A DNA stretch of 54,792 bases from Candidatus Omnitrophota bacterium (GCA_026387475.1 JAPLLN010000035.1:1-54792), one strand, 5' to 3'; counted from the first letter of the stretch, positions 20,480-44,199 are shown. Made by a program: numbers and translations. The notes: generated by a model not told the origin, from the sequence alone.

Positions 20480-20498
20480 GAACTATTCTCCGTATAAT

Positions 20499-20851: not shown

Positions 20852-20893
20852 GATTAACCGCTCCTTTGAATTGTTAATTTTGCAATGTTGTAC

Positions 20894-20921
20894 AATTATA
20901 ACATAAAGCATCGTGAAGTCA
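20894..20921 (-). promoter_or_regulatory. putative sigma70 promoter of rpmH
   Basis: The minus strand reads TTGACT-16 nt-TATAAT (rc of 20916-20921 and 20894-20899). Confidence 0.45.
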
Positions 20922-20935
20922 ATAAAAAGTGTGCG

Positions 20936-21057
20936 CTGTGGGTAAGCTTCTTTTTTTATTGACGCGGGGGCAAATTATTGTATAATGGTTCGCGTTTAAC
21001 TTTTCTGCTTGCAAATGCTTTCAACTCTGTTATAATCTACTGTGTGATTTTTCCACA
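20936..21057 (+). promoter_or_regulatory. dnaA control region with two sigma70-like promoters and two near-consensus DnaA boxes
   Basis: Promoters: TTGACG(20959-20964)-16 nt-TATAAT(20981-20986) and TTGCAA(21009-21014)-16 nt-TATAAT(21031-21036). DnaA-box-like 9-mers, each one mismatch from TTATCCACA: TTACCCACA (rc of 20936-20944) and TTTTCCACA (21049-21057). Confidence 0.45.
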
Positions 21058-21091
21058 GATTTATTCAAGGTGTTAATAAGTTGTTAATTCG

Positions 21092-22432
21092 GTGCTTATG
21101 ACAGACATCCTGCAGGCCTGGGGAGCTTCCCAGGGCCTTCTTAAAAACAAGCTGGGCGATACGGTTTTCGACACCTGGATAAAACCCCTGAACCCGCGAT
21201 CGGGAAAAGAGGGGGAGCTTATCCTCGAGGCGCCGGATAATTTTTTCCGCGACTGGATCGAAAAAAACTTCCGCGCAGCGATCGTCGAGGCTTTAAAAGG
21301 TTCTTTCCCGGGCGAAGTAACCCTCCGACTGGAAATTGGCGAAGTTGCTCCGGGGGCGCTTGCAGAAAATACGCAAGGCCCGAAGACAAAACTCCGGGAA
21401 CCGGCTGCCGCAATCGGGCTAAACCCGCGTTATACATTTGATAATTTTATTGTCGGCCCGTCCAACCGTCACGCCCACGCCTACGCGCTTGCTGTCGCCG
21501 ATTCTCCGGCTAAGGCGTATAATCCTTTATTTATTTACGGCGGAGTGGGTTTAGGCAAGACACACCTGATCCAGTCTATCTGCCACCACATACGCGCAAA
21601 GACGAACGGGGATCTGAAACTGGCGTATCTGCCATCCGAGACTTTTACCAACGAGTTGATCAACGCCATACAGCACCACTCTACCAGCGCCTTCCGGCAA
21701 AAATACCGCAACATAGACCTGCTAGTCATAGATGATGTGCACTTTTTCGCCGGCAGAGAGTCTACGCAGGAAGAGTTTTTTAATACCTTTAACGCCCTGT
21801 ATGACGCGCACAAACAGATCATACTTTCCTCTGACCGGCCGCCGAAAGAAATCGCCAACTTGCAGGAAAGGCTGGTCTCGCGTTTTGGCTGGGGGCTGAC
21901 AATCGATATCCAGCCTCCGGATTTCGAGACCCGGGTCGCTATTTTGAAAAAGAAGATCGAGCGCGAGCCGGTAGCTGTGCCCGACGACGTCATCTCTTTT
22001 ATCGCCCAGCTTATTAAAACCAACATAAGGGAGCTGGAAGGGGCGCTGATCCGCACCATCGCTTACTCCTTATTAGAAGAGGAGCCGATAACCTTAAGCC
22101 TGGCCAAAGAAGTTTTAAAAGATTTATTGAAAGAACCTAGAAAAACCATTACTATAGACTTTATCCAACGTTGCGTTGCGGAAGAATTCGGGGTATCATT
22201 ACAAGATTTAAAAACCAAGCGCAGGAATAAAAACATTGTTCTCCCGCGACAGGTAGCCATGTATTTAAGTAGAGAATTGACCGAGATGTCTTTACCGGAA
22301 ATAGGTGAGTTTTTTGGAGGTAAAGACCACACAACGGTTTTACATTCTTATAATAAAATAAAAAATGATTTAAAGACCAATTTGTCATTACAAGAAAAGG
22401 TAGAGCGGGTTACACAGGTTATTAAACAATAA
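21092..22432 (+). CDS. dnaA: chromosomal replication initiator protein DnaA
   Basis: AAA+ motifs ([19 protein letters not shown]) and a C-terminal DNA-binding domain ([32 protein letters not shown]). The start could be the GTG at 21092 or the ATG at 21098. Confidence 0.95.
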
Positions 22433-22574
22433 TACACAGGTTGTGATAGGGTTTACGGTTTAGTTAAGTTTAGTGATACTTAAGGGTTGTGGTAGTTATA
22501 AACAATAATTAAAGTCATTACTGCTATTACGGTTTTAATATCTTATTAAATTATAATAATAGAAGGAGAGTTAA
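22433..22574. other. AT-rich dnaA-dnaN spacer, candidate DNA-unwinding part of oriC
   Basis: 142-bp spacer with a very AT-rich stretch at ~22530-22560 (ttaatatcttattaaattataataat). Only weak DnaA-box-like words are present (TAATACACA). Confidence 0.3.
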
Positions 22575-30848: not shown

Positions 30849-31501
30849 TGCTTTATATTGTTGCCACGCCTATCGGCAATCTAAAAGATATGACCTTTCG
30901 CGCAGTCGAGGTGTTAAATTCCGTCGATATGATCGCCTGCGAAGATACCCGCCACACCAAGATCCTGCTTAATCATTACGGCATTAAAACTCCTACCACA
31001 AGTTTTTTTCAGCATAATAGATTTACCAAAGGCGAATATTTATTAGGCCTTTTAAAAGAGGGTAAGAATATCGCGCTGGTCTCTGATGCCGGAACCCCGG
31101 GTATTTTAGACCCGGGATACAATTTGATAAATTTAGCTATTGAAAATGAAATTCCTATTACTGTGATCCCGGGCGCAAGCGCATTTATTAATGCGCTGGT
31201 TTTGTCAGGCAAGCCTGCGCATGAATTTGTCTTTGCAGGATTCCTGCCGAACCGGACTGGCGCGCGCAAGAACAAATTAAAAGAACTGGCTAAGCTTAAA
31301 AAAACTATAGTTTTTTATGAGTCCTGCCACCGGATTTTAGCTGCCCTAGAAGACATTCAGACAGTTTTTGGAGACCGGGAGATCTGTGTGGCCCGGGAAT
31401 TAACCAAGAAATTCGAAGAAATAGCCCGCGCTAAGCCCGCAGCAATTCTCGCCAAGTTCCAGAAAAACCCGCCAAAAGGCGAATTTTGCGTAATTATCTA
31501 A
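30848..31501 (+). CDS. rsmI: 16S rRNA (cytidine1402-2'-O)-methyltransferase
   Basis: MLYIVATPIGNLKDMTFRA...CEDTRHT...SDAGTPGILDPG is the RsmI signature. Confidence 0.85.
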   Translation: MLYIVATPIGNLKDMTFRAVEVLNSVDMIACEDTRHTKILLNHYGIKTPTTSFFQHNRFTKGEYLLGLLKEGKNIALVSDAGTPGILDPGYNLINLAIENEIPITVIPGASAFINALVLSGKPAHEFVFAGFLPNRTGARKNKLKELAKLKKTIVFYESCHRILAALEDIQTVFGDREICVARELTKKFEEIARAKPAAILAKFQKNPPKGEFCVII

Positions 31502-31541
31502 TGTCCAATCTGGATTTCCGCGTTTAAAATGTCCAATCTGG
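31500..31541 (+). repeat. two 14-bp direct repeats (aatgtccaatctgg) 28 bp apart, upstream of the giant ORF
   Basis: Exact copies at 31500-31513 and 31528-31541. The first overlaps the rsmI stop codon. Confidence 0.85.
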
Positions 31542-31710
31542 TTTATTAGATCTATCAGCTGCCAATAATCGTTTTAATCCCATATCTTCCTGTAACCCCT
31601 TTGTCTGTTGCAGGTTAGGATAGCAAGCGCTTTCCCAAAACCCCCTAAATACTATTGTAATGTATTACCTATATGGCATACTTACACATAGTTAGGGCTG
31701 ATAAACCAAA

Positions 31711-34700
31711 ATGAAAAAACTCACTAAAGTAATCGCCATATTATTATCGGTTTCTCTTTTATTGCAGCAGGTCGGCTTTGCGCAAGTAGCCGGGACCCTG
31801 GACATCTCCGGCTTTATGACCCAGCTGCGCCAGTCCATTGCTGTCGATAAATTTCGTCCGCTCCATCTGCGCTATCTTGCCTACGACAACATTAATAATA
31901 ATTTTAAATTACTCCTGGATAAGGGTGACATCAAAAATTTAAAATCCGCTCAAATTGAAGAGACGAGTAAGAAGCTGCTTAATCTCTTCTTTGTCGGCGT
32001 AACTCTGCCTAATGATAGTTTCTGGGTGAACTTACGGCCGGACTCTCCGGATAAGATGCTCGACCCGATGGTCGCCCAGACTGATGTCGGTAAGGTGTTT
32101 TGCGAGGCTGACCTGCAACTTAAAAAAGATACTGCCAAATTTACTTCTCCGGACACCGCCGAGGGCAAGGAGTATTGGAATAAGCTTTATCAGAAAGCAG
32201 GGGAGATCTTCGGCTCGGAGAATATCACTATCCCGACCCTGACCCGGCCCTGGATCGTCCCGGATGAGATCATCATCCGCGAATCCACGGATAACGCGTA
32301 TATTTATAAAGCTACTTTGAAGGTAATGCTCGAGCAGGATTATTTAGCGGGCTCTGCCACTTATAATTTTAAAGACGAGCGCTTAAAGGCCCTGAACGAA
32401 TACTCTTCGCAGCTCATCCGTGAGCTGATTATCCCCAAACTCACCAAAGAAATCAATACCTCAAAAAGATATGCTTCCTTGCGCCAGGTCTATTATTCCC
32501 TGATTATGGCGCAATGGTTTAAGCAGAAGTTTTACGGCAAGGGTGGGCTTTATTCCTGGCTCATCGATAAGCAGAAGCTCAACGGCCTTACTTCTAAGGA
32601 AAATTGGAGCAAGGACTCGTATTTTAAAGAATACCAGAAGTCATTCCAACAAGGGGAGTACAATTTCAAGGTCCCGGTGTTTACGCCTTACGGCCAGACC
32701 ATCAGGAGCTATTTTTCGGGAGGTATTTCGGTAGGGACAGTGATGCAGCAGGCGACAATAGTGCCAGCGCCCAGCCCCTTGGCGGGGTCTAGTGGGGCCA
32801 TTGCCGAGTTATCTTTAAATCAGCATATCAGCAGCCCAGTAAACGTAGCTGGAGGTAGCGTAGATGACCTCGCGGATGTAAAACCGGAAGTAACTCAGGC
32901 GGCATCCGCTGCTTCAAGCTCGGCCATTCAGCCCCAATCCACCGCCGGTAATGCCGCGAGATTGGCCTTAGAAACGGCACACCAAGAGTCAATAAAACGG
33001 TTATTGCGCCAGCTTCCTACAAGACCAAAGCCTGACGACATAATAAGTCTCTCCATGGAAGATATAATTCATGGCTCAGATGCTACGCCAGCGCAAATAC
33101 AGCAGATATTGGATTCCCAAACCATGAAAGTCGAATTGGGAAACATACTTCCGTATGCGGAAATAATAGTCAAACAGTTGACTAGATTGTTAGCCTCTGG
33201 GCGTTATTCAAAGATACTTATTTGCGGCCGCGACGCAGATATTTTTGACGACGCATTGCAGGTTGTTTTATCGGGAACCGGGCTTGAAGGCCGGGTTGTG
33301 CGCCTGCCCTCTAGCGAGAAAATGCGTTATTATGTACGGGATGCAATGCCGGCGGATGATAAAATAAAGTTTTTGAGCCACCTCGGGATTACGAGCAACC
33401 TAAATAACGAAAATATATTAGTTTTTGATACCGGTTTCGAAGGCAGCGTATACTTATGGCTTTCCGACTTAATTTCAAAAACATTTCCGGGAATGGATGT
33501 TCCGAAGCATCTCTCATGCGGAATGATCCGCTCCCAATTGGGCGAAAGCCTCCAGATTATCAAATTACCTCCGCCTTCTGCCGCAGATATTGCAGGTGGT
33601 TTTCCGTATAATAAGTTCCCGAAGAGTGCCTTTCTTGCGCGAAGCGCAGATATGAACACTCTTGTTGCCTGCGCGGTAGATGCCTTGCCGCAGTATTCCG
33701 GAGGTTTCACAAAGGCGTTGGTTACAGATACCGGGGCAGTTAAGTTTATCGCTGATAATGCCGTTGTTTCATTCGACCCGGACAGGCTAGAGCGTTCTTT
33801 CCATAGTTCTGCGCAGTATAATAATTCCGGCATAGTAAATCCCGCCGCAGCAATGATGGTTCAAAAGAGAGTAGTGGATTATTTTATATCGCATCGTGAT
33901 CAGCTGCTTAGCGGTATAGGTTCATTAAATCAGCATATTAGTAGGCCTGTAGAAGTAACAGGGGGGAGTGCGGCAAGTCCTGCAGAGATAACGGTAGCTG
34001 TGCAGGCAGCCCAACCCGTTGCCCAGCCCAACACCGTAAACTCAATGACTCCGTCCGAAGCCGGAACTACCATGGCCCATATCCAAAAATTTGCGGATTT
34101 CATATTGGGCCTGTTTAAGGATCGGGATCTTAAACAGCCAATCGATTATGCCGATATCGGAAGCGGTGCTGACGCGGAATTCGAAGAGAACATGGTGCCA
34201 TTGTTGACTGCCTTAGGATTTAAGATTAGGGAAAGAGTAAGCGTAGATGGTGGTTATTTTGGTCCATTGACAAGCAAAGTTAAAAAAGCGGACATTACTG
34301 ACAAACAACAAAGAGAAAGCATTGGTCTAGGTGATGAATCCAGGGACCTTGTAACTATAAATAATATTCAGTCTTTCAGACTTGTGCAGCCGGCAATGGC
34401 TACATTGAAGCCAGGAGGCGTGTTATTGGTGACGTTTGCTAAGAGCGACCTGGAGGATAGGCATGACGATCCCAGGATTATTGAACAAGTAATCGCGGAA
34501 GCAAAGGAATTATTAGGATATGAAGTGCGTGAAATACAAAAACCAGACGACTATCCTGTTTCAAACAGCAAAATCAAGCATAATCCTAACTATCCGTCTT
34601 ACGGCAAGATGCTCATTATCACCAGAAAAAAGAGTCCTGGCGGAGAAATTGTTTTTTCTGCCGCCGTAAACCCCACGCCCGCCGCCTCAAGCCCGGTATT

Positions 34701-37700
34701 CGCTAATGTTGATTTACCCGCGTTGCGGGAGACGCTTGCCGCGATTAGAAAATCAACTGAAATGGCGAGTCAGGGGTATGCCACCGGCTTAAATGATTAT
34801 ATACTTAGTACACAGTTGCTTGCGGATTTAGGTATCGCGCGCGGCGACGTCTTATATCCGTGTATGGGAGTGGATTTGGCGCTTGCCCGCCACACTAAGG
34901 TGTTCGGTTTGAATACAACCACCGGTTTAACCAGCAGGTCAGAGCTTGAGCCTGTAATTGCTTTATTCCAGCGTAACGGTTGGAGTGCCGCTGACACAAA
35001 GACAGCAGAGAACAACATTCATCTGATTACCGGCGACTATCGCGACAGCTCCCAATACGCCGGGCTACGGGCGCAGGGAGGGGTGGATGTAATAATGGCC
35101 AAGGGGTTGGGCTGGACAGTAAGCGAGAGCGAGATAAGGAAATTCTTTAAGGACATAGGCAGCGAACTTTTGAAGTCCGGAGGATATGTGGTCATTGTAG
35201 GCGCAAAGGATGAGTGGTTACGCGATTATCTGATGCGCGAGTTTGGCTACAAAGATATTTTTGAGCAATTCTTGCCGCAAGAAGCGCAGCAACTTCCCCT
35301 TGATGAGTATAAGCAGGTGAAAGATGCGTTATCCGCTCAAAACGGCGGGCCTGAAAAGGTGCTAAGCGTAAGAGATGCGCAATTTGTCGTTGGCAGGCTT
35401 CCTATGGCGGTATTGCAGAAACCCGTCGCCTCAAGCCCGGCACCGGACCCCGAATTCCAGGCGGCTGCCGAAACCGCATATAAGCAAGTTGCCGAGGAAA
35501 AGCAAGAACCGGCAAACCAGATTTATTATTCGCAATTATGTGAGCCATTCAGCAAGGCGCTAAATAAAATATTAGGAGACAAGGGCTACCAGTCATGGGT
35601 AGTGACGGTTGGACAATGGGGAGGCATTTCTACCCATGATTTCGTCATCATTAAGGACAAAAATGGCCGCTTCTGGCTTATCGATGGCACCTGGCAGCAA
35701 TTCCTAAAACAAGATCAGCTGCCACTCGACCATCAAAAAGCAGTCATGATCCTTGAAATAACCCAGCAAAATGGCGAGGTTCAAGAGAAGGACATGGAAG
35801 AGAAGTTTGCTAATTTTGGAGTGCCTAGTTTTATGAGCCGCAGGTTGGCATCCGCAATTAAAAATAAAATTAAAGAAGCAGTGACCCAGAATGCTGAACC
35901 GCCTACTGTCATCTCCAGTCCGGCGCCTAGCGCCTCCAGCCCGGCCCGCGCTTCTTCTCCGGCGACTAGCCATTGGTGGAAGACGATTACCTATACTGTA
36001 TTGATGGCTATGCCGACACTGGCAGTCCTGTATTTATTGTTAAGAGATGTCCCAGGCGAAGAGGCGGCTACTATCGCGCCTCCTGCCCAGCCGGCTGCGC
36101 AAGCACAGCAAGAATACCCAAGACATATAAGATTTTTAATAGAGGCAGCTAAAAATCAAGATCAGATGGCATCTATTAAGTTGGGCGAGCTGGCGAATAA
36201 GCAAGACAGGCTTGCTTTTTCTGCGCTTATTGACTTAGTGAAAGCTGGTAATGAAGATGCTTTTGGCGTGCTTAGCAGTTTATCTGAATCGCAAAACAAG
36301 GAGATAAAGGATCTGGTTTGGTCAGAGCTCGCCAGACTGGTGCTGCAAGACGGGTTAGACAGGCCTATCGACTTCTTTGATTATAATACTAATGATCCCC
36401 GGCGCGGATGGGAGACGATGGTTGCCTTTGCCAAGGCGGGGAATAAAACAGCAATAAGCCGCGTATTAGCTTATGCTAATGACCGCCGTGATCCGGAAAA
36501 AGGCCGGGAGGCGCGCGCTCTGGTTTCGAAGTTAATAGAACAGGGAGATAGAGAAGTGATCGCCTCTGTTTTTGAAGAAGATGTACGAAACATGCGTACG
36601 CGCTATCTTGCCGGGCATGATTTGAAAGCGCTGCAGGCAGAACTAACTGAAAAGAGCCGTGATAACGCACTTTATCTGGCTTTTGCATTTACCGCGCGCG
36701 AAAGTTCCGGCGCCTTAGCCGATGAAATCTTGGTTAGATTAGAAAAGATAGCAGGTAGCAAAGGCAATATGCTGGGCTTTATTGATTCGATGAATGACCG
36801 CCAGCTTCTTAAAAATTTTATTTTATCCGCGGCAAATTATAACCACCTCAATACCCTAGTCGCATCGGATGAAGCGCTTAAAAATGCGGTAGATATGCTT
36901 TTTAAGGGATTAAACGCGCAAGAAGCAGAGATGTATTCCGTGCGCTTAGCTTTATTTGTTGAAGATATTTTACGTCAGAACAGCAGGACTGATGCTTTTA
37001 AGAAGTGTCTGTTTACCTTATATGACGATAACGGGGTGTCAGGCTTGAATAAAGATTTGATTGCCGCCTTGCTTACGGTTTACGCTGATAAATTCTCCGC
37101 TATTGACCAGCAGAAGATTACGCGCATCGCAGCAGAACGCGGTATCCAATACAATAAAGCCAGGGTCAATACCGCTAAACTGCTCAAGAACGGCAAGCTT
37201 ATTATACATACGGTCTTTATGGATCAGGATGCGCAAAACTTTATCTCTGGAACATCCGAATTTTATAAAAGCCAGGGTTATAAATCAGAGCGCAGGGATG
37301 GGCATATTGCCTTGACTAAAGGCAATGTGGTAATATGGCTGATTAATAATGTGGGTAACGCATATGACATTCGGGAGCACATAGGGAAAGTCTCGGCATT
37401 CATTTTACGCGGGCATGCTGGAAGTGAGGAGCGTCTATTCAAGGGGCAATCCCAGGAGTATTTTATGGCTTTTATTAATGCTTGCCGCAGCGCAACATTC
37501 TTAGGGAAGCTAAAGGCGCAATATCCAAATGTCGATGCTATAGGCGTGCGTGGAACAGGGGAAGGTGAACCGGGAACCCGTGTTAGCTACTACTTAGAAC
37601 GCGCGCTCAACAGCGGTATAAGGGATTGGAGCCAGATCCGGGATTATTTGAAGAACCATATCAAGGGTTATGCCGGGAACCTGGCAATGCCGGGTGACCG

Positions 37701-40700
37701 CGCGCTAGACGTGCTTGGTATTGTTTCCCGGAAAGCCGCGCAGGCTAATAATACCGCCTCCAGCCCCGCTCCGGCTCCGGGAATAGATAAGACTGCCTTA
37801 ACGGAGATCTTTACCAGAAATCATTATCTGTCGTACCTTGTTTTGAATATGTCGCTTGTTCCTTGGAGTATCTCCGCTGATTCGACCACTAAACTGCAGC
37901 AGCTGCGCGACGAGATGAATACGGAATATCTTAATTTCCTTGCTATGCCTGCAGGCTCTACGGATGAGATTCGGCTGGCTTATCTGCAGCTTGCCCTGCT
38001 GATAAGGAAGAATCTGCCCACCGCGAAGTCACTGGTTGATAGCATTCCCGAGGGAGCTATTAAGAAAAACATGAAAGAAGGTATTATCGATGCGGAGCGT
38101 TTCGCTAACGGTATTGAAATGCTCATGGATGATTCTAATAATCAGGTAAATATTAATAATACTCTGGATGCAATGTCAAATATCGTATTTTCTAAGCATT
38201 ATCGTGATAGAGGGGGTAAGTATAATATAACTATGCAGGCCGCTTCAGATATGCCGAAGCTAAATGCGAATCAGGGCGATATAGCGTATTTATTCCTCAA
38301 CCTATTTCTCCCGTTTGTCTTGCCTTTGGGGGTATTTAACGGAAAAGAAGTAGAGTTAAAGGTATCCACAAAATCCGAATCGGGTAATTTAGTAATTACG
38401 GCAGAGTCTAACCAAGCTCCATCCACGGAAGATATAATGGTCTATGGCCATCCGATAAACGCGGGTTTCAGGGTAGCGCAGAGAATTGCTAAAAAATATG
38501 GCGGGACTATAGAAGCGCAGTCTCAAGGCACGAAACTTATAGTAAGGCTTCCGATTGCGCAGCAGGCCGCTTCTTCGCCTGCGCCATGGGAGCCGCGTTT
38601 GGATAAAGAAAAGGCAATAGAGGATTGCCGGAGTATCAGCTTGGCTCTTCGCGAGATTTATGCAGATCCGCAATGGTCAAGCCAGCTTAGGAGCGAAATG
38701 CGGTATGTTCTTACTCAATCCGGCGCATTGACTGCTTTGCTTGGGCTTAGAGCCATTGCTGAACTAGGCCAGTCTTTTGATATTGTCTATCAGGTAAGCC
38801 TTACGCCGCAATTGCATACAGAGCTTGAAAATTTGTTACGCAAAAATGGCAATAGCCAGATAAGAATAAAAACTATAAAGCAATCAGGCGCCGGCCGGAA
38901 CTATACGCAGTTTATTATAATCAACTTGGAGAAAGCTAGACAGGTGCTTCTCCATCCTGTATTCACCGTACGCGAAAGAGAGCGCGCCACCACCGACGAT
39001 GGATTGTGCGATTTTATATTAGCTCTAAATAATGACATAAGCTATAACCGCAGGGATATGAAATTAGGGTTGTTGTTCGGTGTGCCGGAGGTTGAGGCAG
39101 TTGCTTACGAGAAGCAGGGCTCTGGGATACACGGCAGAAACATTGAAATCAGTAATCCGTTTGAAGAGTTTGGTGCTTCCGGTAACGTTTGGAAGGCGCT
39201 TACCCATGATCCGGCAAACAAACGGTACGAGGCCATATACGAAGAGGCTTATGGAATAGCCAGAGAAGCGATCCCCAGTCACCAGTATCTTATTGATAAG
39301 CCAGAGGGTAGTTTGTCCGGAGGTATCTCGGCCTCCAGCCCGGCGCCCGGCGCCAGTTCGCCTAACAAGGCAGAAGGCCTGTTAGAACTAGATAGGAGAC
39401 CTATAGATGGGGGTTTACTCAATACAGTTTATGTAGGCCATGATATGGAGGTATGCAGGGCCGTTAATCCAGACCATCAGGGTGGCCAGATAGCGGTCAA
39501 TGTTGCATCCGGCGCCGGTATTTCTAATTACCTTTTGAGTTTAGATGCAACAACGGGGTATTTCGTTGATACGGTCAAAGTTAATGCTGGCGATTTAACA
39601 GAATCTCTGGCTCGTTGGGCTGGATTATCCGGTATTGTTAATGACCCGGAGTTCTTCGGTGGTTATGCGCAGCGCAAGTTTCGGGCTGGTTACGAACAGG
39701 CGTTCGCCGCTTTCGGAGATGGATCGGACGGCATCATGAGTGCCTTGCAAGCAGAAAAAATACTCTATGAATTGCAAGTGATGGGCGTGGATAAAGAATC
39801 TATAGCGGTTGAAAAGATTGATGACAAAACCGTTAAGCTGACCTTCAAGTGGGCTTATCCGGGTCGTCCGCTTAGAACTTACGAGATTTATTTTGTTCAT
39901 CAAGATATAGCCTCCCCGGAGAGCTTCCCGCAAATCCTTAGAGATCTAAAAGGCAAGGCAACTTTCATTTATGAGCGCGCCGGCTTATCTCTGCCTGCGC
40001 GATACCATCTATTTATTAATGAATTAATTTCTTATCTCAAGCCTAATGGTTATCTGATGACTGATGATGTTAGTTACGATAAGGCCGCATCAGAACCCTA
40101 TGTCGACCAAGGGAAGTATTTCGATAATATTAATAATCTCGTTACGGTTAAAACTCCCGCAATGGGTGAATGGGAGCAAAAAATTGCTACTTATAGAGAA
40201 GATAAGTTTGAGAAGACTTCTTATGGGGCAATAGTGCGGATTCGGCAAGTGACACAGGGGAGTGCTACCAAGCCCGGAGCCTCCAGCCCGGCGCCCGCCG
40301 CCAGCTCGCCGGTTAAAACCGGGGCAGAAAGCGCAAATAATGATGGCCGGCCGTTTATCTTAGACAAGGGGACCGGATTGTTTGTTCCGGACCGCACAGT
40401 CGTCTCTGTCACTGCGCCCAAAGATAAAAAAGCTATTGCTGAAGCTACAAGTAGAGTAGAGTCAGCTATCGGTAAGATAAAGAAGATAAGAAGCGTCACC
40501 GATGCCCAGGCCCTGGATAAGAAGGGAGAGCTTGCGGCGTCAGTCGAAGATCTTAACTATATCGCGTTGCTCGGGCTTAACGGAGAACTTACGCAGTCGC
40601 TCGCAGAACCTTTGTGTATTATATTGAACTATTCGTCTTCAGCTGAACTCCACCGCAAAGTGCACCTTCTTCTGACTCACCTGCCGGGGTCATTTATTTT

Positions 40701-43602
40701 TACTCCAACTCAATCAAACGCGCTGATTAGTTCCATAGACCGCTTCGGTTCATCCGATGAAAAATTGACACAGCGCGTTATTGAGTCCGTGACCTTAGAC
40801 TTAAACATTTTATCCGAAGAGAACTTCGCTTCCTATCTTAGGATTATCAGCCGCCTGCCCCGTTACCATGCCGAAGGCCTGACTAACCTGCCCAGCGAAA
40901 TGACCTTTGGTGTTGAAATCGAAGTGAATCTGTTGGATGCGAAAGAAGCCACGGATTTATTAGCCACCACAAAGCTTCTTCGTAAGCTAATAGATTTTGC
41001 CAGCAGAGAAGGCTTAGCAGCCCGTGGCTGGGTAGTTAAGCGGGACATGAATAATATTGAAATTACCACTAAAGATAAAGGCCTTCCCAATACGCGGGAG
41101 GGCTGGGCTGAACTGCGGGATGGTTTAACCAAGCTGTGGGGTTTTATTATGGCTAACTCTCCGGAGCGCTCGCTCTATTACGGTATGCATGTCCATATCG
41201 GCAGCCCTCTGCCCAGTTTGCAGAGAGGGAAGCTTATGCGCGCAGTCTCCTATATAGGAAAAAGCATGGAACACTGCTGGAGCCTGTTAGGAAAAGTTCA
41301 AAACAAGCTGGTTTTCAGCGAAGATGCGCTTTGGGGAGACCAGATAACAAGTAAAGGCAAGACGCCTTTTTATGACGATGCGACAAAAAATACGGTTGCC
41401 ATAAACACTTTTGCTCCTGCGCCCATTAATCTGCTCTCCGGTAACGGGGATAAGTATTTTGCACGGTTACAACTTACTATAGGCGCTGCATTAGCTATTG
41501 TGCATAATGCCTCCGCAAGGCCAGGGGAATTCACTTTCCTACGTACCGGGCTTCCTTTGCTCCAAAGTTCCCTTTATACCAAAGAAAATTCTTTTCTTCT
41601 GCGCCGGCATATTAATCATCTCTTCGGGGGAGATTCTGCGGGGACCATTGCCATGCTGCAGCTTCTCTATGATATGAAGCGGCTCCCGCAGCTTCCGGTT
41701 GGCGGGGTTGATGTAGTCAACGAACAACGGATAAAGAAGGCTTATGAAGCCGCCGGATTCGGAGAATTGTATGCTTTGCATAAACAGAGCAACGGTTGGA
41801 GCTCTATGGCAGTGCAATTAATTGATAAATCCATACAGCAATGGCGCGGCAAGATACTTTCTCCTAACACAGATATAACGCAACAGGGGAAAGGCGTTGA
41901 AGTGTTGGGTGATGCAGCTTCGAACGGCAGCCACTCCGCGGCTATGGCTTTAAAAGAAATCATCCTTACCACGGAAAACACCAATCTACAGAGCATGGCG
42001 ATGCATGCTTTAAAGTCCGCACTTTTTAAAGACAGCCAGCCTGCGGCTACGGCCTTAAAAGAAATCATTCTTACCGCGGAAAACACTAATGTGCAAGGAG
42101 ATGCGCTGGAAGCCTTAGCTTCCGGTTGTTTCGCAGACAAAGAGTTCGCTGTCAGGTCCGTCGAAGAACTGATTATAAGAGTAAAGGAAATCATCCTTAC
42201 TAAAAACGATACCAGGTTGCAAAATTTTGCCATAGATGCCCTACAAGGCGCTGCTAATCGGAATAGCCAGCCTGCGGCTACGGCCTTAAAAGAGATCGTC
42301 TTTGCTACGGAAGATATCGGCCTGCAAGACAAAGCGATCGCCGCTTTAGAAGATGCTTCCATTTGGAATAGCCTGCCCGCGGTTACGGCATTGAAGGAAA
42401 TCAGCCTTACCAAAAACAATACCAGATTACAAACTGGTGCCATAGCCGCCTTAATAAGCACTGCCTCCTTGAGTAGCTACGCGGCTACGGCTTTAAAAGA
42501 AATCATCCCTGTAGTTCCGGACTCAAAGGAAATCATCCTTACCACGCAAGGTTTTAATCCACGAAATGTATTAGTTGCTTCTTCGCCCGCCGCCTCAGAC
42601 GCCGCGCCATCCCCTCAACCCGCTATAGATATACCAAGAGAAACGTCTTATATTGCTGAGCAGATGGGTGCAAAAAGAGGAGACAGGGTATTGATTATGG
42701 GTTACCGGTTCCTTCATTTACCTACAGCGCTAGGGATGCATGGCGTTAACACTACATTGGTAGACCTCAATCCTGACGTAATAAATATGGAAAGACTATT
42801 CGCCGCACCTTTGAGATCTAAGGATGGTCAGGTAGCCCCAGCCTTTATCAATAAGTACGCCGAGGACATCAATACGCAAGACGCGCCTTTGGATAGTTTT
42901 GATATAGTATCGCTTCTTGATTTATTTATAGATACGCAAGGTGACCCGCAAGCAACTATTAAAATGGCTCTTCAAAGAGTAAAGGACGGGGGGGTTGTAT
43001 ATTTACCGGAATATATCAGTTGGAGGGAAGGCCAATTTGGTTTGTCTGCGGTAAAGAAAGGAACAGAAGGCTTGGCTTTGAATCGTCTATGTGCAGAATT
43101 AGGGTATTCCTATGAACAAATTCCCGGCAAGTTTATACCTGGAGACCAGACGAATTTAGCTTACAGAATAACTAAACATAAGGCCCAGCCAACTGTTTCT
43201 TCTCCAGCGGAAAACGCTAAGGGTGGTATTGACCTGAGCGCGCTGCCTATTGTGGTCCAGCCTATGCCGAACAACCGGATCCCTGCGCCGATGGTGCCTA
43301 ATTTATCTGCGGCAACCGATAAGGATCTGCTGGAGATCCAGAATATGCTCGTTTCGGGGATTACTCCTTCCGGAGAGAGGTTAAAGGATTATATGGCAAA
43401 ATGCTCTGATCAGCAGGATATGAATAAGATATTAAGCTGTCTTGCCGATATCTTCAGGATGGAAGAGGATCAGGCTGTCGCGACTGACCCGGCTTTGAGG
43501 CAGTTTTTGGTATTGTTGGAATCAGGGAAGAATTCGCAGGAATTAAAACAGGAGTTAAACAAGATCAGCTTTGCTCCGCAGGAGCCGGAGCTAGTGGAGT
43601 AA
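31711..43602 (+). CDS. giant (3,963 aa) secreted or membrane-anchored multidomain protein made of enzyme-like modules joined by ASSPAP linkers
   Basis: One uninterrupted 11,892-nt frame with a Sec-like signal peptide (MKKLTKVIAILLSVSLLLQQVGFA). One internal TM helix at aa ~1424-1445. Motif-level hits to Rossmann MTase-like (x4), transglutaminase-like, HEAT-like, degenerate HATPase_c and amidoligase-like modules. Confidence 0.85.
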   Translation: MKKLTKVIAILLSVSLLLQQVGFAQVAGTLDISGFMTQLRQSIAVDKFRPLHLRYLAYDNINNNFKLLLDKGDIKNLKSAQIEETSKKLLNLFFVGVTLPNDSFWVNLRPDSPDKMLDPMVAQTDVGKVFCEADLQLKKDTAKFTSPDTAEGKEYWNKLYQKAGEIFGSENITIPTLTRPWIVPDEIIIRESTDNAYIYKATLKVMLEQDYLAGSATYNFKDERLKALNEYSSQLIRELIIPKLTKEINTSKRYASLRQVYYSLIMAQWFKQKFYGKGGLYSWLIDKQKLNGLTSKENWSKDSYFKEYQKSFQQGEYNFKVPVFTPYGQTIRSYFSGGISVGTVMQQATIVPAPSPLAGSSGAIAELSLNQHISSPVNVAGGSVDDLADVKPEVTQAASAASSSAIQPQSTAGNAARLALETAHQESIKRLLRQLPTRPKPDDIISLSMEDIIHGSDATPAQIQQILDSQTMKVELGNILPYAEIIVKQLTRLLASGRYSKILICGRDADIFDDALQVVLSGTGLEGRVVRLPSSEKMRYYVRDAMPADDKIKFLSHLGITSNLNNENILVFDTGFEGSVYLWLSDLISKTFPGMDVPKHLSCGMIRSQLGESLQIIKLPPPSAADIAGGFPYNKFPKSAFLARSADMNTLVACAVDALPQYSGGFTKALVTDTGAVKFIADNAVVSFDPDRLERSFHSSAQYNNSGIVNPAAAMMVQKRVVDYFISHRDQLLSGIGSLNQHISRPVEVTGGSAASPAEITVAVQAAQPVAQPNTVNSMTPSEAGTTMAHIQKFADFILGLFKDRDLKQPIDYADIGSGADAEFEENMVPLLTALGFKIRERVSVDGGYFGPLTSKVKKADITDKQQRESIGLGDESRDLVTINNIQSFRLVQPAMATLKPGGVLLVTFAKSDLEDRHDDPRIIEQVIAEAKELLGYEVREIQKPDDYPVSNSKIKHNPNYPSYGKMLIITRKKSPGGEIVFSAAVNPTPAASSPVFANVDLPALRETLAAIRKSTEMASQGYATGLNDYILSTQLLADLGIARGDVLYPCMGVDLALARHTKVFGLNTTTGLTSRSELEPVIALFQRNGWSAADTKTAENNIHLITGDYRDSSQYAGLRAQGGVDVIMAKGLGWTVSESEIRKFFKDIGSELLKSGGYVVIVGAKDEWLRDYLMREFGYKDIFEQFLPQEAQQLPLDEYKQVKDALSAQNGGPEKVLSVRDAQFVVGRLPMAVLQKPVASSPAPDPEFQAAAETAYKQVAEEKQEPANQIYYSQLCEPFSKALNKILGDKGYQSWVVTVGQWGGISTHDFVIIKDKNGRFWLIDGTWQQFLKQDQLPLDHQKAVMILEITQQNGEVQEKDMEEKFANFGVPSFMSRRLASAIKNKIKEAVTQNAEPPTVISSPAPSASSPARASSPATSHWWKTITYTVLMAMPTLAVLYLLLRDVPGEEAATIAPPAQPAAQAQQEYPRHIRFLIEAAKNQDQMASIKLGELANKQDRLAFSALIDLVKAGNEDAFGVLSSLSESQNKEIKDLVWSELARLVLQDGLDRPIDFFDYNTNDPRRGWETMVAFAKAGNKTAISRVLAYANDRRDPEKGREARALVSKLIEQGDREVIASVFEEDVRNMRTRYLAGHDLKALQAELTEKSRDNALYLAFAFTARESSGALADEILVRLEKIAGSKGNMLGFIDSMNDRQLLKNFILSAANYNHLNTLVASDEALKNAVDMLFKGLNAQEAEMYSVRLALFVEDILRQNSRTDAFKKCLFTLYDDNGVSGLNKDLIAALLTVYADKFSAIDQQKITRIAAERGIQYNKARVNTAKLLKNGKLIIHTVFMDQDAQNFISGTSEFYKSQGYKSERRDGHIALTKGNVVIWLINNVGNAYDIREHIGKVSAFILRGHAGSEERLFKGQSQEYFMAFINACRSATFLGKLKAQYPNVDAIGVRGTGEGEPGTRVSYYLERALNSGIRDWSQIRDYLKNHIKGYAGNLAMPGDRALDVLGIVSRKAAQANNTASSPAPAPGIDKTALTEIFTRNHYLSYLVLNMSLVPWSISADSTTKLQQLRDEMNTEYLNFLAMPAGSTDEIRLAYLQLALLIRKNLPTAKSLVDSIPEGAIKKNMKEGIIDAERFANGIEMLMDDSNNQVNINNTLDAMSNIVFSKHYRDRGGKYNITMQAASDMPKLNANQGDIAYLFLNLFLPFVLPLGVFNGKEVELKVSTKSESGNLVITAESNQAPSTEDIMVYGHPINAGFRVAQRIAKKYGGTIEAQSQGTKLIVRLPIAQQAASSPAPWEPRLDKEKAIEDCRSISLALREIYADPQWSSQLRSEMRYVLTQSGALTALLGLRAIAELGQSFDIVYQVSLTPQLHTELENLLRKNGNSQIRIKTIKQSGAGRNYTQFIIINLEKARQVLLHPVFTVRERERATTDDGLCDFILALNNDISYNRRDMKLGLLFGVPEVEAVAYEKQGSGIHGRNIEISNPFEEFGASGNVWKALTHDPANKRYEAIYEEAYGIAREAIPSHQYLIDKPEGSLSGGISASSPAPGASSPNKAEGLLELDRRPIDGGLLNTVYVGHDMEVCRAVNPDHQGGQIAVNVASGAGISNYLLSLDATTGYFVDTVKVNAGDLTESLARWAGLSGIVNDPEFFGGYAQRKFRAGYEQAFAAFGDGSDGIMSALQAEKILYELQVMGVDKESIAVEKIDDKTVKLTFKWAYPGRPLRTYEIYFVHQDIASPESFPQILRDLKGKATFIYERAGLSLPARYHLFINELISYLKPNGYLMTDDVSYDKAASEPYVDQGKYFDNINNLVTVKTPAMGEWEQKIATYREDKFEKTSYGAIVRIRQVTQGSATKPGASSPAPAASSPVKTGAESANNDGRPFILDKGTGLFVPDRTVVSVTAPKDKKAIAEATSRVESAIGKIKKIRSVTDAQALDKKGELAASVEDLNYIALLGLNGELTQSLAEPLCIILNYSSSAELHRKVHLLLTHLPGSFIFTPTQSNALISSIDRFGSSDEKLTQRVIESVTLDLNILSEENFASYLRIISRLPRYHAEGLTNLPSEMTFGVEIEVNLLDAKEATDLLATTKLLRKLIDFASREGLAARGWVVKRDMNNIEITTKDKGLPNTREGWAELRDGLTKLWGFIMANSPERSLYYGMHVHIGSPLPSLQRGKLMRAVSYIGKSMEHCWSLLGKVQNKLVFSEDALWGDQITSKGKTPFYDDATKNTVAINTFAPAPINLLSGNGDKYFARLQLTIGAALAIVHNASARPGEFTFLRTGLPLLQSSLYTKENSFLLRRHINHLFGGDSAGTIAMLQLLYDMKRLPQLPVGGVDVVNEQRIKKAYEAAGFGELYALHKQSNGWSSMAVQLIDKSIQQWRGKILSPNTDITQQGKGVEVLGDAASNGSHSAAMALKEIILTTENTNLQSMAMHALKSALFKDSQPAATALKEIILTAENTNVQGDALEALASGCFADKEFAVRSVEELIIRVKEIILTKNDTRLQNFAIDALQGAANRNSQPAATALKEIVFATEDIGLQDKAIAALEDASIWNSLPAVTALKEISLTKNNTRLQTGAIAALISTASLSSYAATALKEIIPVVPDSKEIILTTQGFNPRNVLVASSPAASDAAPSPQPAIDIPRETSYIAEQMGAKRGDRVLIMGYRFLHLPTALGMHGVNTTLVDLNPDVINMERLFAAPLRSKDGQVAPAFINKYAEDINTQDAPLDSFDIVSLLDLFIDTQGDPQATIKMALQRVKDGGVVYLPEYISWREGQFGLSAVKKGTEGLALNRLCAELGYSYEQIPGKFIPGDQTNLAYRITKHKAQPTVSSPAENAKGGIDLSALPIVVQPMPNNRIPAPMVPNLSAATDKDLLEIQNMLVSGITPSGERLKDYMAKCSDQQDMNKILSCLADIFRMEEDQAVATDPALRQFLVLLESGKNSQELKQELNKISFAPQEPELVE
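41938..42560 (+). repeat. tandem ~105-nt (35-aa) HEAT-like repeat array inside the giant ORF
   Basis: Units start at 41938, 42043, ~42148 (degenerate), 42274, 42379 and 42481, with a partial unit at 42526. Each encodes AATALKEIILT..NT.LQ..A..AL. Confidence 0.85.
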
Positions 43603-43694: not shown

Positions 43695-43774
43695 TGGGGG
43701 GTTGTTACGTCTATTGTAGTGTAGGATGGGGGTGAGTCGTTGGGGTGGGTTAGGGTGTTGGGGTGAGGATGGGG
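43695..43774 (+). repeat. G-tract arm (G-quadruplex-type sequence), imperfect inverted partner of 44148-44196
   Basis: ggggggttg...ggatgggggtgagtcgttggggtgggttagggtgttggggtgaggatgggg contains at least 4 runs of G3-4 separated by 1-7 nt. Confidence 0.8.
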
Positions 43775-43776
43775 AA

Positions 43777-44199
43777 ATGCAAAAGACGCAAAGTTTTAGG
43801 GATTTAGAAGTTTACAAACGATTATACCAAAACATGCTTTTGATAGCAGATAAAGTCTTGCCAAAGTTACCTGCGGAAGAAAGATTCGGGCTGATTGACC
43901 AAATGCGCAGGGCTTCCAAGGCTCCGCTTGCGATTATCGCAGAAGGCTATGCTAAGAAACATTACCGGAGAGACTGGTTAAGATATATAAACGATGCGAT
44001 TGGCGAATGCAACGAAATGATAACCCACTTATCTTGTTGTAAAGATTTGTATTCAAAATACCTAGATATAAATTTAATTGAAAGGCTTATCGCAGATTAT
44101 GACATTAGCGGTAAACAACTTTTCTGTTTAGGTAAGAGCTGGTTATCCACATCCCCACCCCCATCCCTAACTCACTACCCACCCTCACCCACACCCTAA
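43777..44199 (+). CDS. four-helix-bundle protein (23S rRNA IVS protein / Avd-like family)
   Basis: MQKTQSFRDLEVYKRLYQNMLLIADKVLPKLPAEERFGLIDQMRRASKAPLAIIAEGYAKK...IGECNEMITHL matches the family as I remember it. I moved the start to the ATG at 43777. The last ~20 aa (STSPPPSLTHYPPSPTP) are read from the C-rich repeat arm. Confidence 0.75.
   Translation: MQKTQSFRDLEVYKRLYQNMLLIADKVLPKLPAEERFGLIDQMRRASKAPLAIIAEGYAKKHYRRDWLRYINDAIGECNEMITHLSCCKDLYSKYLDINLIERLIADYDISGKQLFCLGKSWLSTSPPPSLTHYPPSPTP
44148..44196 (+). repeat. C-tract arm, imperfect inverted partner of 43724-43774
   Basis: ccacatccccacccccatccctaactcactacccaccctcacccacaccc. By eye its reverse complement aligns at roughly 70 percent identity with the upstream G-rich arm. 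Confidence 0.7.

Follow-up and report, generated by a model that had tools for sequence, protein, structure and literature searches.

The window analysed here, a stretch of 54,792 nucleotides from a Candidatus Omnitrophota bacterium (GCA_026387475.1, JAPLLN010000035.1:1-54792), carries at 31711..43602 on the plus strand an open reading frame of 3,963 codons plus stop, situated in the gene order gyrA-glmS-rsmI-[gene]-pyrR-pyrB-pyrC. It is the sole long frame at the site and its translation contains zero internal stops, as the earlier note had claimed. The 11,889-nt frame is intact, with 2 nt differences and with identical neighbour genes, in three independent Logan assemblies (ERR15302182, ERR15302175 and SRR20698638), and is therefore not an assembly artefact. 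The G+C content of the gene (47%) resembles that of its flanks and no tandem DNA repeats were found at the gene. An exact-sequence look-up with the window protein gave zero matches, because the public copy of the protein differs by two residues. Scans of both gene ends found no promoter-like site and a single terminator-like stem, on the minus strand within the upstream rsmI-like gene. All features described below lie on the plus strand.

The protein begins with a Sec-type signal peptide at aa 1-24 (31711..31782; MKKLTK, a hydrophobic core and GFA/Q), recognised from sequence and hydropathy. In the N-terminus, MKKLTKVIAILLSVSLLLQQVGFA/QVAG, a basic n-region precedes a hydrophobic core of 18 residues (Kyte-Doolittle 1.82), which is followed by a G-F-A site; the n-h-c pattern and the GFAQ motif are kept throughout the family alignment; hydropathy layout and family-wide conservation thus agree with the Sec-like signal proposed previously. 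This standard Sec layout, with its basic n-region and small-x-small GFA, predicts export of the downstream part, and it is from such sequence features that we infer the export and location of the protein. A published DeepTMHMM survey of long Omnitrophota proteins reports that most of them have a signal peptide and/or TM helices. Hydropathy reveals one strongly hydrophobic internal segment in the window protein, at aa 1426-1447, where a TM helix had been anticipated (~aa 1424-1445). A second hydrophobic stretch, at aa 2191-2209, occupies the expected position of the N-box helix of an HATPase-like module and is probably not a membrane helix. If the internal helix spans the membrane, aa 1448-3963, including the C-terminal domain, would return to the cytoplasmic side, which speaks against an exported frame; most family members have no internal hydrophobic helix.

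Downstream of the signal peptide lies a conserved domain, the family-defining head (N-domain, aa 25-345; 31783..32745), delimited by homologue search, alignment and a homologue model. The search returned 335 matching proteins, at E values down to 1e-164 and 50-73% identity, whose sources, where named, were Omnitrophica/Omnitrophota or plain 'bacterium'. Species-representative genomes yielded 453 confirmed N-domain stretches and metagenomes 484, individual genomes having several paralogues; aa 1-345 share 60-88% identity with members at more than 150 loci. The alignment contains about 50 invariant residues, and AlphaFold modelled the domain of a homologue (P0033) with a pLDDT of 85-95. The protein ends with an equally recognisable tail (C-domain, aa 3833-3963; 43207..43599), a 'GGIDL..LP' motif and helical bundle identified through C-terminal homology, an HMM and alignment. 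More than 40 members have C-termini that are 33-48% identical to it, and throughout the family the last ~130 aa consist of GGID(F/L) followed by a helical bundle, the helices having a pLDDT of about 80-90 in the P0033 model. The C-domain HMM matched downstream of the N-domain in 47/47 complete N-domain genes examined, in frame at the very end in 41 and beyond a frameshift or gap in the other 6. A word-index search with the C-domain gave one match among proteins of at most 655 aa. The N-domain as a naturally separate protein, as it appears at two loci (L001, L002), was ruled out, because in 6/6 split cases either the stop is bridged by a second open frame or an N-run gap intervenes.

Profile and Foldseek searches found no match for the N-domain in Pfam, NCBIfam, PDB or BFVD, and the C-domain has none in Pfam, NCBIfam or PDB; a match of the latter to a designed PPR protein (E=2e-4) was discarded because it adds up ten repeats that are individually non-significant. 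When the head/tail model was searched with Foldseek in PDB and BFVD, no match had E<0.001, the top of the list being the ClyA-type pore-forming toxins NheA and MakB at a non-significant E of 0.5-1.5 and probability of 0.08. Profile and structure searches likewise found no resemblance of the end domains to known secretion, sorting or anchoring domains, and no conserved partner gene was found adjoining family members, where there is housekeeping synteny only; both observations count against a cargo frame. The earlier note had called the N-terminal ~345 aa and the C-terminal ~135 aa unassignable, which holds for Pfam, NCBIfam and PDB; it missed that these are conserved, family-defining parts, and both define a large Omnitrophota family.

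Between head and tail, the body is divided by short junctions built on the tripeptide SSP. The first, LNQHISSPVNVAGGS (aa 368-382), lies in a low-complexity linker (32746..32970) that is predicted to be disordered in the homologue model, and a near copy, LNQHISRPVEVTGGS, follows at aa 738-752. Motif count and hydropathy place a triple SSP junction (aa 1402-1417) immediately before the TM-like helix (aa 1424-1447; both within 35914..36051). In all, the window protein has 14 SSP motifs, spread over 10 sites (aa 374, 993, 1241, 1402/1409/1415, 2017, 2288, 2542/2549, 2858/2865, 3624 and 3830), always as [A/I/V]SSP[A/V/N] and at 14x the number expected from composition. SSP is also the most enriched tripeptide of the family middles (6.8x, against 1.2x in non-family neighbouring genes of related loci), where the junctions take the short form (A/S/V)SSP(V/L/I/A) between cassettes. 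Homology breakpoints fall within 25 aa of a junction in 29.7% of cases versus 9.0% at random, a value that 0/1000 randomisations reached. The SSP codons vary among junctions, so selection acts at the protein level, and DNA-level recombination sites at the junctions were ruled out for the same reason. The linkers mark off 11 segments of the body (12 with an ISRPV variant at aa 744), several of which contain more than one module. The count of at least 13 modules given before is therefore reasonable, although the linkers alone do not define it.

The modules themselves bear out the general description of a mosaic of dissimilar units behind a Sec-like signal, with some reassignments. Four had been read as methyltransferases. 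MT1 (aa 771-992; 34021..34686) is class I SAM methyltransferase-like, an assignment supported through its homologues: it has 24 homologous stretches, and four short homologues exceed the Methyltransf_11 gathering score in the matched region. MT4 (aa 3627-3829; 42589..43197) is a class I SAM methyltransferase by direct match, since Methyltransf_23 scores above threshold at aa 3657-3766 (E=6e-7, 29.8 bits vs a cutoff of 27); it also has weak UbiG matches in PDB. The region proposed as a third methyltransferase, M8 (aa 2552-2857; 39364..40281), is weakly methyltransferase-like, its Pfam matches being below threshold (Methyltransf_23 E=0.067, Methyltransf_31 E=0.16) and its hhalign probability to the MT1 profile 48%. 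The label did not survive for 'MT2' (aa 996-1240; 34696..35430), a recurrent cassette of which 0/20 homologous stretches match a methyltransferase Pfam and whose hhalign value to the MT1 profile is <30%. With the exception of MT1 and M8, hhalign detected no kinship among the four.

Two modules have putative cysteine-dependent active sites. The Cys-His-Asp module (aa 1244-1401; 35440..35913), previously read as transglutaminase/papain-like at aa 1245-1395, retains C1277, H1309 and D1325 invariantly in 15 aligned sequences (alignment A3). Its AlphaFold model (pLDDT 83.7) has the Cys at a helix N-terminus and the His and Asp on adjacent strands, so that in a confident model the triad would be placed as in papain/transglutaminase-like folds. 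Two homologues match Tox-PLDMTX below threshold; Foldseek of the model against PDB gave weak matches, including NAT, Josephin and the CPR-C4 protease (best E=0.2-0.8), and nothing at E<0.001, and a profile search against PDB sequences found nothing significant. M5b (aa 1721-2016; 36871..37758; 21 homologues) contains the His/Cys dyad noticed earlier at ~aa 1850-1990, namely H1902 in 'LRGHAG' and C1925 in 'FINACRS', each retained in 17/19 aligned sequences. The motifs, 'AFILRGHAG' and 'MAFINACRS', each follow a hydrophobic block, which makes M5b a candidate caspase-like (clan CD) peptidase on the basis of two short motifs. It has no Pfam or PDB match, and hhalign to caspase-3 (approximate sequence) aligned the Cys motif only, over 13 columns at a probability of 5%. 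M5b recurs in other N/C-framed proteins. The helical region M5a (aa 1448-1720; 36052..36870), delimited by 15 homologous stretches that always lie upstream of M5b, travels with it; M5a has no Pfam match, and Pfam gives no support to a HEAT-like reading of aa 1460-1700.

The remaining modules are less readily named. M1 (aa 421-770; 32971..34020) has no Pfam or NCBIfam match but recurs at a different position in another family member (phmmer 3e-23 to L019 aa 3300-3617). M6 (aa 2020-2287; 37768..38571) is degenerate HATPase_c-like by a weak Pfam match (PF02518, E=0.038) in which aa 2251-2283 align to profile positions 75-110, the G2-box end only; of the degenerate HATPase_c suggested at ~aa 2150-2285, the C-terminal third thus has this weak match and the remainder none. 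M7 (aa 2291-2541; 38581..39333) matched nothing meaningful in Pfam or NCBIfam scans. M9a (aa 2868-3060) and M9b (aa 3061-3400, with GVEIE...HVHIG motifs), together at 40312..41910, have no Pfam match, and the amidoligase-like reading of aa 3060-3260 has in its favour one weak, sub-threshold carboxylate-amine ligase match in M9b (NCBIfam PRK13515, E=0.062, 30 residues at HVHIG). Repeat periodicity defines a 35-aa helical array (41911..42579) of 5-6 repeats starting at aa 3415, 3450, 3492, 3527, 3562 and 3596; the array placed at aa 3410-3615 is therefore real, but its HEAT-like character depends on a sub-threshold HEAT_2 match (E=3e-4, 21.3 bits vs a cutoff of 27.7). A word-index search with aa 2017-3623 gave no match, a weak negative confined to proteins of at most 655 aa, which probably misses cassettes inside long proteins. 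Scanning metagenomes with aa 2868-3623 gave no match either.

The N/C-framed family is present in hundreds of Omnitrophota genomes. Complete members, running from an N-domain through an in-frame C-domain, are 609 to 3,683 aa long, and others exceed 3,700 aa up to the end of the fetched DNA; their middles measure about 100 aa at the shortest and over 3,300 aa at the longest. These middles are mostly unrelated among members, including positional orthologues in the same slot, and no other member covers more than 10-14% of the middle of the window protein. A member occupies the slot gyrA-glmS-rsmI-[member]-pyrR-pyrB-pyrC, beside the replication origin, in 25 genomes and about 30 metagenome contigs. 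In the closest relative (L087), rsmI is 86% and the N-domain 88% identical, and similarity is gone ~60 aa past the N-domain. The M5 module occurs at other positions in at least 7 other N/C-framed proteins and the MT2 cassette in one other, and no M5b or Cys-His-Asp cassette was found in the 83 family proteins fetched from genomes. Cargo in other members includes HATPase_c (true cassettes in L016 and L019), TPR, HEAT, Peptidase_M48 and response regulator domains, and one family protein carries a GAPDH-TIM-PGK-iPGM cargo. Cassettes are the units of gain, loss and exchange in the family. Because the family keeps signal, head and tail and swaps modules, the window gene is no isolated oddity but one instance of a carrier frame found across the phylum.

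The variability of the locus raises the question of whether the gene functions at all. It differs strongly among relatives, contigs often break within it (L086, for instance, stops just past the N-domain) and frameshifts or gaps interrupt 6/47 members, as might be seen if the frame were chimeric through assembly, or if unrelated gene fragments had been fused in frame by chance at a hypervariable locus in decay. However, the same intact 11.9-kb frame is present in four independent assemblies, the window and the three Logan assemblies, and a stop-free frame of this length is unexpected by chance at 47% G+C. Moreover, the module families keep their catalytic residues, the junction motif is retained despite codon variation, and 41/47 complete members run from N-domain to C-domain in a single frame. 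We regard a non-functional locus as highly improbable; the gene is real and part of a large undescribed Omnitrophota family.

Long exported multi-enzyme proteins of Omnitrophota are already in the literature, a class that the earlier note had missed. They have been reported as 'Archaeovorin'-type giants (West-Roberts et al. 2023, bioRxiv 10.1101/2023.11.21.568195) and as a 'multi-enzyme' class of long proteins (Nielsen and Lui 2026, bioRxiv 10.64898/2026.06.07.730766). The giants resemble the window protein in phylum, in a signal peptide and/or TM helices, in strings of divergent enzyme domains with methyltransferase, HATPase_c and HEAT among the commonest, in metabolic enzymes on a predicted extracytoplasmic chain, and in few Pfam matches and low sequence conservation among members; the window protein shares their many enzyme domains. 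At 3,963 aa, however, it lies below the length thresholds given in both accounts (at least 10,000 aa in Nielsen and Lui; a gene >90 kb, 30,000 aa, in West-Roberts et al.), and Pfam detected in it no SecA-like, C39, S8 or dockerin domain at E<=1, whereas SecA-like, C39 and S8 peptidase domains are described as common in the giants. No conserved head/tail, SSP motif or glmS-rsmI slot was found in the passages of these accounts that were covered; frame, junction motif and variable slot appear not to have been described previously.

Other systems with constant ends offer analogies. MARTX toxins (the Vibrio RtxA family) likewise have conserved N- and C-terminal regions around a mosaic effector array that varies between close strains, an internal cysteine-peptidase module, and cargo enzymes that require host-cytoplasm cofactors. 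Unlike them, the window protein has no glycine-rich A/B/C repeats (Pfam and NCBIfam scans; no tandem repeats) and no Peptidase_C80 (Pfam), only a His/Cys dyad at motif level; it has an N-terminal Sec signal and no type I secretion signal; its head and tail are globular, non-repetitive and without detectable kinship; and the peptidase-like cassette is missing from most N/C-framed members. The comparison drawn in the earlier note consequently stands as an analogy of fixed ends, mosaic middle and Cys-peptidase-like module, and fails as membership. Flagellins and similar surface proteins also combine conserved termini with a centre that varies in length and content and sometimes holds enzyme domains; in contrast, the window protein shows no sequence or fold similarity to them, has a Sec signal and a middle of thousands of residues with many independent cassettes, and shows no sign of polymerisation. 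Sorting-tag systems such as the CTD of type IX secretion place a Sec signal and a conserved C-terminal domain on otherwise unrelated cargo, but the window C-domain is helical, matches no NCBIfam or Pfam sorting domain, and is accompanied by a 320-aa head domain that is obligatory in the N/C-framed family. No such obligatory head domain is known from sorting-tag systems.

We propose, at about even confidence, that the gene belongs to a family of exported 'cargo-frame' proteins that extends throughout the Omnitrophota, with constant ends and a working variable middle, and an exported cargo frame at the host interface is, from sequence, the most likely function of the protein. The protein opens with a Sec-type signal and the strongly conserved ~320-aa head and closes with the conserved ~130-aa tail. 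According to this model, the signal would carry it across the inner membrane, and head and tail may be the invariant parts by which it is exported, attached or assembled at the cell envelope. The cassette string between them, connected by SSP junctions, comprises in the window copy at least 2 SAM-methyltransferase modules, the Cys-His-Asp and His/Cys modules, helical-repeat scaffolds and several other units that are unassigned or weakly assigned. This middle would act outside the producer cytoplasm, on the surface of or within a partner (host or prey) cell of these host-dependent bacteria. The SSP junctions may be functional linkers, cleavage sites or O-glycosylation sites, and the cassettes could then act separately. 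Much of the cargo (SAM methyltransferases, ATPase-like modules and the four glycolytic enzymes of relatives) needs cofactors normally confined to the cytoplasm, a point against a cargo frame, and fits the periplasm or surface badly unless it enters another cell.

That same cargo can be accommodated differently. The protein may be a multi-enzyme scaffold tethered to the inner membrane and working in the producer's own cytoplasm, the N-terminal hydrophobic stretch and the internal helix serving as anchors and fused ordinary enzymes being co-localised or co-regulated. The SAM methyltransferases here, and PGK, TIM, GAPDH, iPGM, response regulator and HATPase_c in relatives, are what such a scaffold would carry, and with an exported N-terminus the internal helix, if it spans the membrane, would leave aa 1448-3963 in the cytoplasm. 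Yet the standard Sec layout of the N-terminus predicts export, and most complete members lack any further hydrophobic helix, so that their whole body would be outside; the scaffold also leaves unexplained why close relatives carry different cargo in positional orthologues. We consider it unlikely. Cofactors are equally at hand if the protein is a MARTX-like multi-effector toxin, in which head and tail would form a translocon in the membrane of the target cell, the middle would be pushed into the host cytoplasm, with its SAM, ATP or NAD, and M5b and/or the Cys-His-Asp module would cut the SSP junctions to release individual effectors. Fixed ends, a mosaic middle differing among close relatives and an internal His/Cys-dyad module are in keeping with this, as are reports of Omnitrophota as host-dependent or predatory, and ClyA-type toxins (NheA, MakB) top the Foldseek list, though far from significance. 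The Pfam scan, however, detected no MARTX repeat, Peptidase_C80 or RTX family, the signal is of Sec rather than type I secretion type, the clan CD call consists of two short motifs, and the pore-former likeness is non-significant. The absence of M5b and Cys-His-Asp cassettes from all 83 genome-fetched family proteins further indicates that self-processing is not a general family mechanism. A toxin of this kind is, in our judgement, rather improbable. As for the exported cargo frame, its most far-reaching form, in which head and tail constitute an Omnitrophota-specific export/display (or delivery) system, with a universal frame, SSP-inserted enzymes and a fixed origin-side slot reloaded at speciation pace, is a tentative proposal that we think could be right but would not expect to be.

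No trait of Omnitrophota is more conspicuous, or less understood, than their long multi-enzyme proteins, which published surveys portray as sequence-unique and hard to classify. The conserved head, tail and junction motif are the first handles common to many such proteins; they permit classification at family level and mark where cassettes start and end, and the constant parts suggest dedicated machinery that recognises head and tail. The question of what these proteins are for becomes experimentally concrete, in terms of localisation, SSP processing and cargo versus host range, and a fixed slot with exchangeable cargo provides a clean natural system for in-frame domain shuffling. If true, a universal export frame would be a new protein-sorting principle and would give these ultra-small episymbionts a route for delivering cytoplasm-type enzymes onto or into their hosts, the cargo ranging over methyltransferases, cysteine hydrolases and even a complete GAPDH-TIM-PGK-iPGM block.

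As the earlier note had read it, the long gene (31711..43602, plus strand) is one unbroken 11.9-kb frame encoding 3,963 aa. Three independent Logan assemblies, from other sequencing runs, carry the 11,889-nt frame intact with 2 nt differences and the same neighbours, which makes a mis-join or a hidden frameshift very unlikely. The G+C content of the gene is like that of its flanks and no tandem DNA repeats were found within it. The encoded protein opens with a putative export signal of the three-part Sec layout (MKKLTK, an 18-residue hydrophobic core and GFA/Q) and possesses a single clear internal hydrophobic helix at aa 1426-1447, in agreement with the signal and the internal transmembrane helix proposed earlier. 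In the 209-nt gap 5' of the gene, neither a sigma-70-like promoter nor a clear Shine-Dalgarno sequence ahead of the ATG was seen; a 13-mer, ATGTCCAATCTGG, occurs there twice, 30 nt apart (window 31500-31542), and may be an operator or other binding site.

The N-terminal ~345 aa and C-terminal ~135 aa, both left unassigned in the earlier note, proved on searching to be the conserved termini of a large protein family, which we refer to as the head (aa 25-345) and tail (aa 3833-3963) domains. A protein search with the first 375 aa yielded 335 matching proteins (E down to 1e-164, 50-73% identity), all named Omnitrophica/Omnitrophota or plain 'bacterium' where the source gives a name, and none with a Pfam domain over the head region. 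The matches listed had at most 655 aa; P0122, a near-identical protein of 3,963 aa, is absent there and was found by the representative search, and negatives of the protein search for cassettes within long proteins are accordingly not reliable. The alignment shows ~50 invariant head residues (e.g. FWVNLRPD, DLQLKKD and TRPWIVP.E) and a conserved 'GFAQ' signal end. Scans with it confirmed 453 stretches in a collection with one genome per species, and 484 in JGI metagenomes, with record titles that are nearly all Omnitrophota. There are up to four copies per genome (four in JBAZTA01; three each in JBAZKL01, CAZPNW01 and JACQXK01; two in tandem in locus L071). ORF extension over 82 loci (L001, L002 and 80 loci of the genome scan) gave complete members, running from head through in-frame tail, of 609 to 3,683 aa; another 34 ORFs are still open where the retrieved DNA stops, some past 3,700 aa. 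By BLAST, the window protein matches the family ORFs at two parts only, aa 1-~345 (60-77%) and the last ~130 aa (33-48%), the latter always at the extreme C-terminus of the other member. The tail HMM located the domain downstream of the head in every one of the 47 genes with a complete N-domain. In 41 of them it is the final, in-frame domain; in the other six it lies behind a frameshift or scaffold gap, with another frame open across the stop. Five of these breaks are frameshifts that leave two ORFs, one with the N-domain and one with the cargo and C-domain (L002:9916-16363, L001, L036, L066 and L072), and the sixth, in L050, is an N-run scaffold gap. The split version in L002 turned up on 19 contigs and is thus a genuine allele; it is either a pseudogene or contains a recoding site.

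The tail opens with an invariant GGID, usually GGIDFRALP, followed by a helical bundle, and neither end matches Pfam, NCBIfam, PDB sequences, PDB structures or BFVD. In the AlphaFold model of the minimal 609-aa member P0033, the head is a mixed alpha/beta domain with three beta-hairpins (pLDDT 85-95), the tail helices are fairly confident and the stretch between them is disordered. The top Foldseek matches of this model, ClyA-type pore formers (NheA, MakB), were counted as no match (E 0.5-1.5, probability 0.08).

Between these ends the middles of the members are mostly unrelated to one another. Only 10-14% of the middle of the window protein has a counterpart in any other member, this part being module M1 (aa 421-770), which recurs toward the C-terminal end of the L019 protein; other pairs have from 5% to 100% of their middles in common, patchwise. 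The slot gyrA-glmS-rsmI-[member]-pyrR-pyrB-pyrC is occupied by a family member of 1,454 to >3,700 aa in 25 species genomes and ~30 metagenome contigs, and since the middles differ among these same-slot members as well, the variation is not merely one among paralogues. In same-slot loci the neighbours are 62-94% and the head 62-77% identical to those of the window, whereas the cargo differs; the head thus has a rate of evolution about as low as that of rsmI or glmS. In L087, the closest relative with cargo sequence (rsmI 86%; head 88% over aa 1-340), similarity is gone within ~60 residues past the head, followed by 1,400 aa of unrelated sequence that has the same junction style ('AASSPVP'). L086 is closer still (gyrA 97%, glmS 96%), and its contig stops directly after the head.

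The window covers the origin-of-replication region of a bacterial chromosome, with the gene order dnaA (21092-22432), dnaN, gyrB, gyrA, tRNA-Glu, glmS, rsmI-like (our label for a 217-aa TP_methylase-family gene), long gene, 23S-rRNA-intervening-sequence-type protein gene, pyrR, pyrB, pyrC. Cumulative GC skew has its minimum at ~20 kb, gene strands diverge at 20000-22500 (minus to the left, plus to the right), and DnaA-box-like 9-mers (TTATCCACA, at most one mismatch) number 32 against 9.5 expected, a threefold excess over the whole window, with only two (20937, 21049) in the gap upstream of dnaA. The 23S-rRNA-intervening-sequence-type gene (43726-44199) lies between the long gene and pyrR, as it does in the near-identical assemblies L083-L085, and was found in no other locus searched; to judge by the spacing, several syntenic loci would have little room for it between the family member and pyrR. 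In some relatives gyrA is one ORF of ~1,250-1,335 aa whose two homologous parts lie ~1.3 kb apart (L018, L023, L030, L088, L100, L116, L135, L137), and glmS is split likewise in L097 and L121, a pattern that suggests inteins; the gyrA (811 aa) and glmS (611 aa) of the window are without an insert.

The short Ser-Ser-Pro linkers described earlier are a feature of the whole family and mark the cassette borders. The window protein has 14 copies of 'SSP', spread over 10 sites and in every case within (A/I/V)SSP(A/V/N), which is 14 times the composition expectation. It is the top over-represented tripeptide of the family middles (6.8x, against a background of 1.2x in neighbouring genes), in the context (A/S/V)-S-S-P-(V/L/I/A), and is nearly missing from the heads. 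Of 155 ends of homology between middles, 29.7% fall no further than 25 aa from a junction, compared with 9.0% for random positions and a highest value of 17.4% in 1,000 randomisations. The Ser, Pro and Ala codons of the window junctions differ from site to site, which indicates a constraint on the peptide and not on the DNA. Signal-peptide-like or TM-like stretches follow some junctions in L016, L020, L022 and L047, and the window protein has a TM-like helix after its triple junction (aa 1402-1417); it looks as if the cassettes derive from exported proteins that were once independent. M1 is flanked by two 15-aa copies of SLNQHIS(S/R)PV(N/E)V(A/T)GG in different codons (aa 368-382 and 738-752; nt 32812-32856 and 33922-33966), and L087 has a related 'SNNQAISDSVDVAGGN' at the corresponding place; this sequence may be a variant junction type.

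Some modules of the window copy can be identified. With aa 771-1970 as query, a full HMMER search of 1.84 billion representatives yielded 83 matches, which fall into four cassette families. Of the four methyltransferases proposed, the first (MT1, aa ~793-973) has homologues that match Methyltransf_11 above threshold and the fourth (MT4, aa 3657-3766) matches Pfam directly; homologues of the second (MT2, aa ~1025-1251) exist and link it to no known family, and the third (M8, aa 2552-2857; E 0.07) is tentative. Equally tentative are the HATPase_c-like module M6 (aa 2020-2287; E 0.038 at the G2-box end) and the amidoligase-like M9b (aa 3061-3400; NCBIfam carboxylate-amine ligase, E 0.062 at HVHIG), whilst the 35-aa repeats are visible and their HEAT_2 match is sub-threshold. 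M1, M7 (aa 2291-2541) and M9a (aa 2868-3060) received no assignment from the module searches. The transglutaminase/papain-like proposal for aa 1244-1401 holds in part: C1277, H1309 and D1325 are invariant, and the AlphaFold model (pLDDT 83.7) places the Cys at a helix N-terminus and the His and Asp on the two strands that follow, which is the arrangement of papain/transglutaminase-like enzymes. Foldseek gave weak matches only, including arylamine N-acetyltransferase, Josephin-type clippases and CPR protease, and two homologues match the papain-fold toxin family Tox-PLDMTX below threshold; many homologues are stand-alone proteins of 130-190 aa. The two-part cassette at aa 1448-2016 (a helical region, M5a, and M5b) recurs at different positions in at least seven other N/C-framed proteins. 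The proposed His/Cys dyad of M5b is borne out, as H1902 ('AFILRGHAG') and C1925 ('MAFINACRS') are kept in 17 of 19 sequences, each with a hydrophobic block ahead, a layout that makes M5b a candidate caspase-like (clan CD) peptidase; this finds no backing in profiles or solved structures, and hhalign against caspase-3 aligned the Cys motif alone. Neither M5b nor the Cys-His-Asp cassette occurs in any of the 83 genome-derived members.

Among sixteen long members scanned, Pfam matches were few overall (none in ~3,000 aa each of L007, L006 and L047) and comprised HATPase_c, TPR, HEAT, Methyltransf_11, Peptidase_M48, Metallophos and response-regulator receiver. A complete framed, signal-bearing member of 3,108 aa, L071:644-9970 (assembly SCRK01, FW104_bin.10), carries consecutively GAPDH (N and C domains), TIM (4e-48), PGK (E 6e-69) and cofactor-independent PGM, by profile match four consecutive lower-glycolysis enzymes in one chain; the second, tandem member starts at L071:9992. 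In P0046, another family member, a PGK-like cassette lies directly behind an ISSPI junction.

Long multi-enzyme, signal-bearing Omnitrophota proteins, with methyltransferase, HATPase_c and HEAT among their commonest domains, are described in earlier work (10.1101/2023.11.21.568195; 10.64898/2026.06.07.730766), and the general kind is thus known. The present protein differs from those surveyed there in being shorter than their length cut-offs and in being without their SecA-like, C39 and dockerin marks; in the passages of this literature that were consulted we found no conserved head or tail, junction motif or variable slot beside glmS-rsmI.

The frame, the junctions, the exchange of cassettes and part of the module identities are shown; the function, location and processing of the long-gene protein we infer from its sequence. 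The conserved signal would send the chain through Sec, and this exported reading has in our judgement about an even chance of being right. The chief problem with it is the need of much of the cargo for cytoplasmic cofactors, a puzzle that a published survey of topology in longer Omnitrophota proteins faces too. Either the chain stays in the cytoplasm of its producer as a scaffold, despite the signal, which we consider unlikely, or the cargo enters another cell through a self-processing translocator of the MARTX type, which seems to us rather improbable. MARTX toxins, to which the protein had been likened, are the nearest mechanistic analogy to the framed proteins, but every defining MARTX feature that could be checked is missing. 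That the gene is an artefact or junk is scarcely credible given the frame shared by the three Logan assemblies. The slowly evolving head and tail would contact something constant in the bacterium, such as export, sorting, anchoring or assembly machinery. Since SSP is selected at the peptide level, the junctions may be either cleavage sites or O-glycosylated linkers. The fast-changing cargo would contact something that varies, and the most plausible candidate is the partner cell on which these host-dependent bacteria rely.
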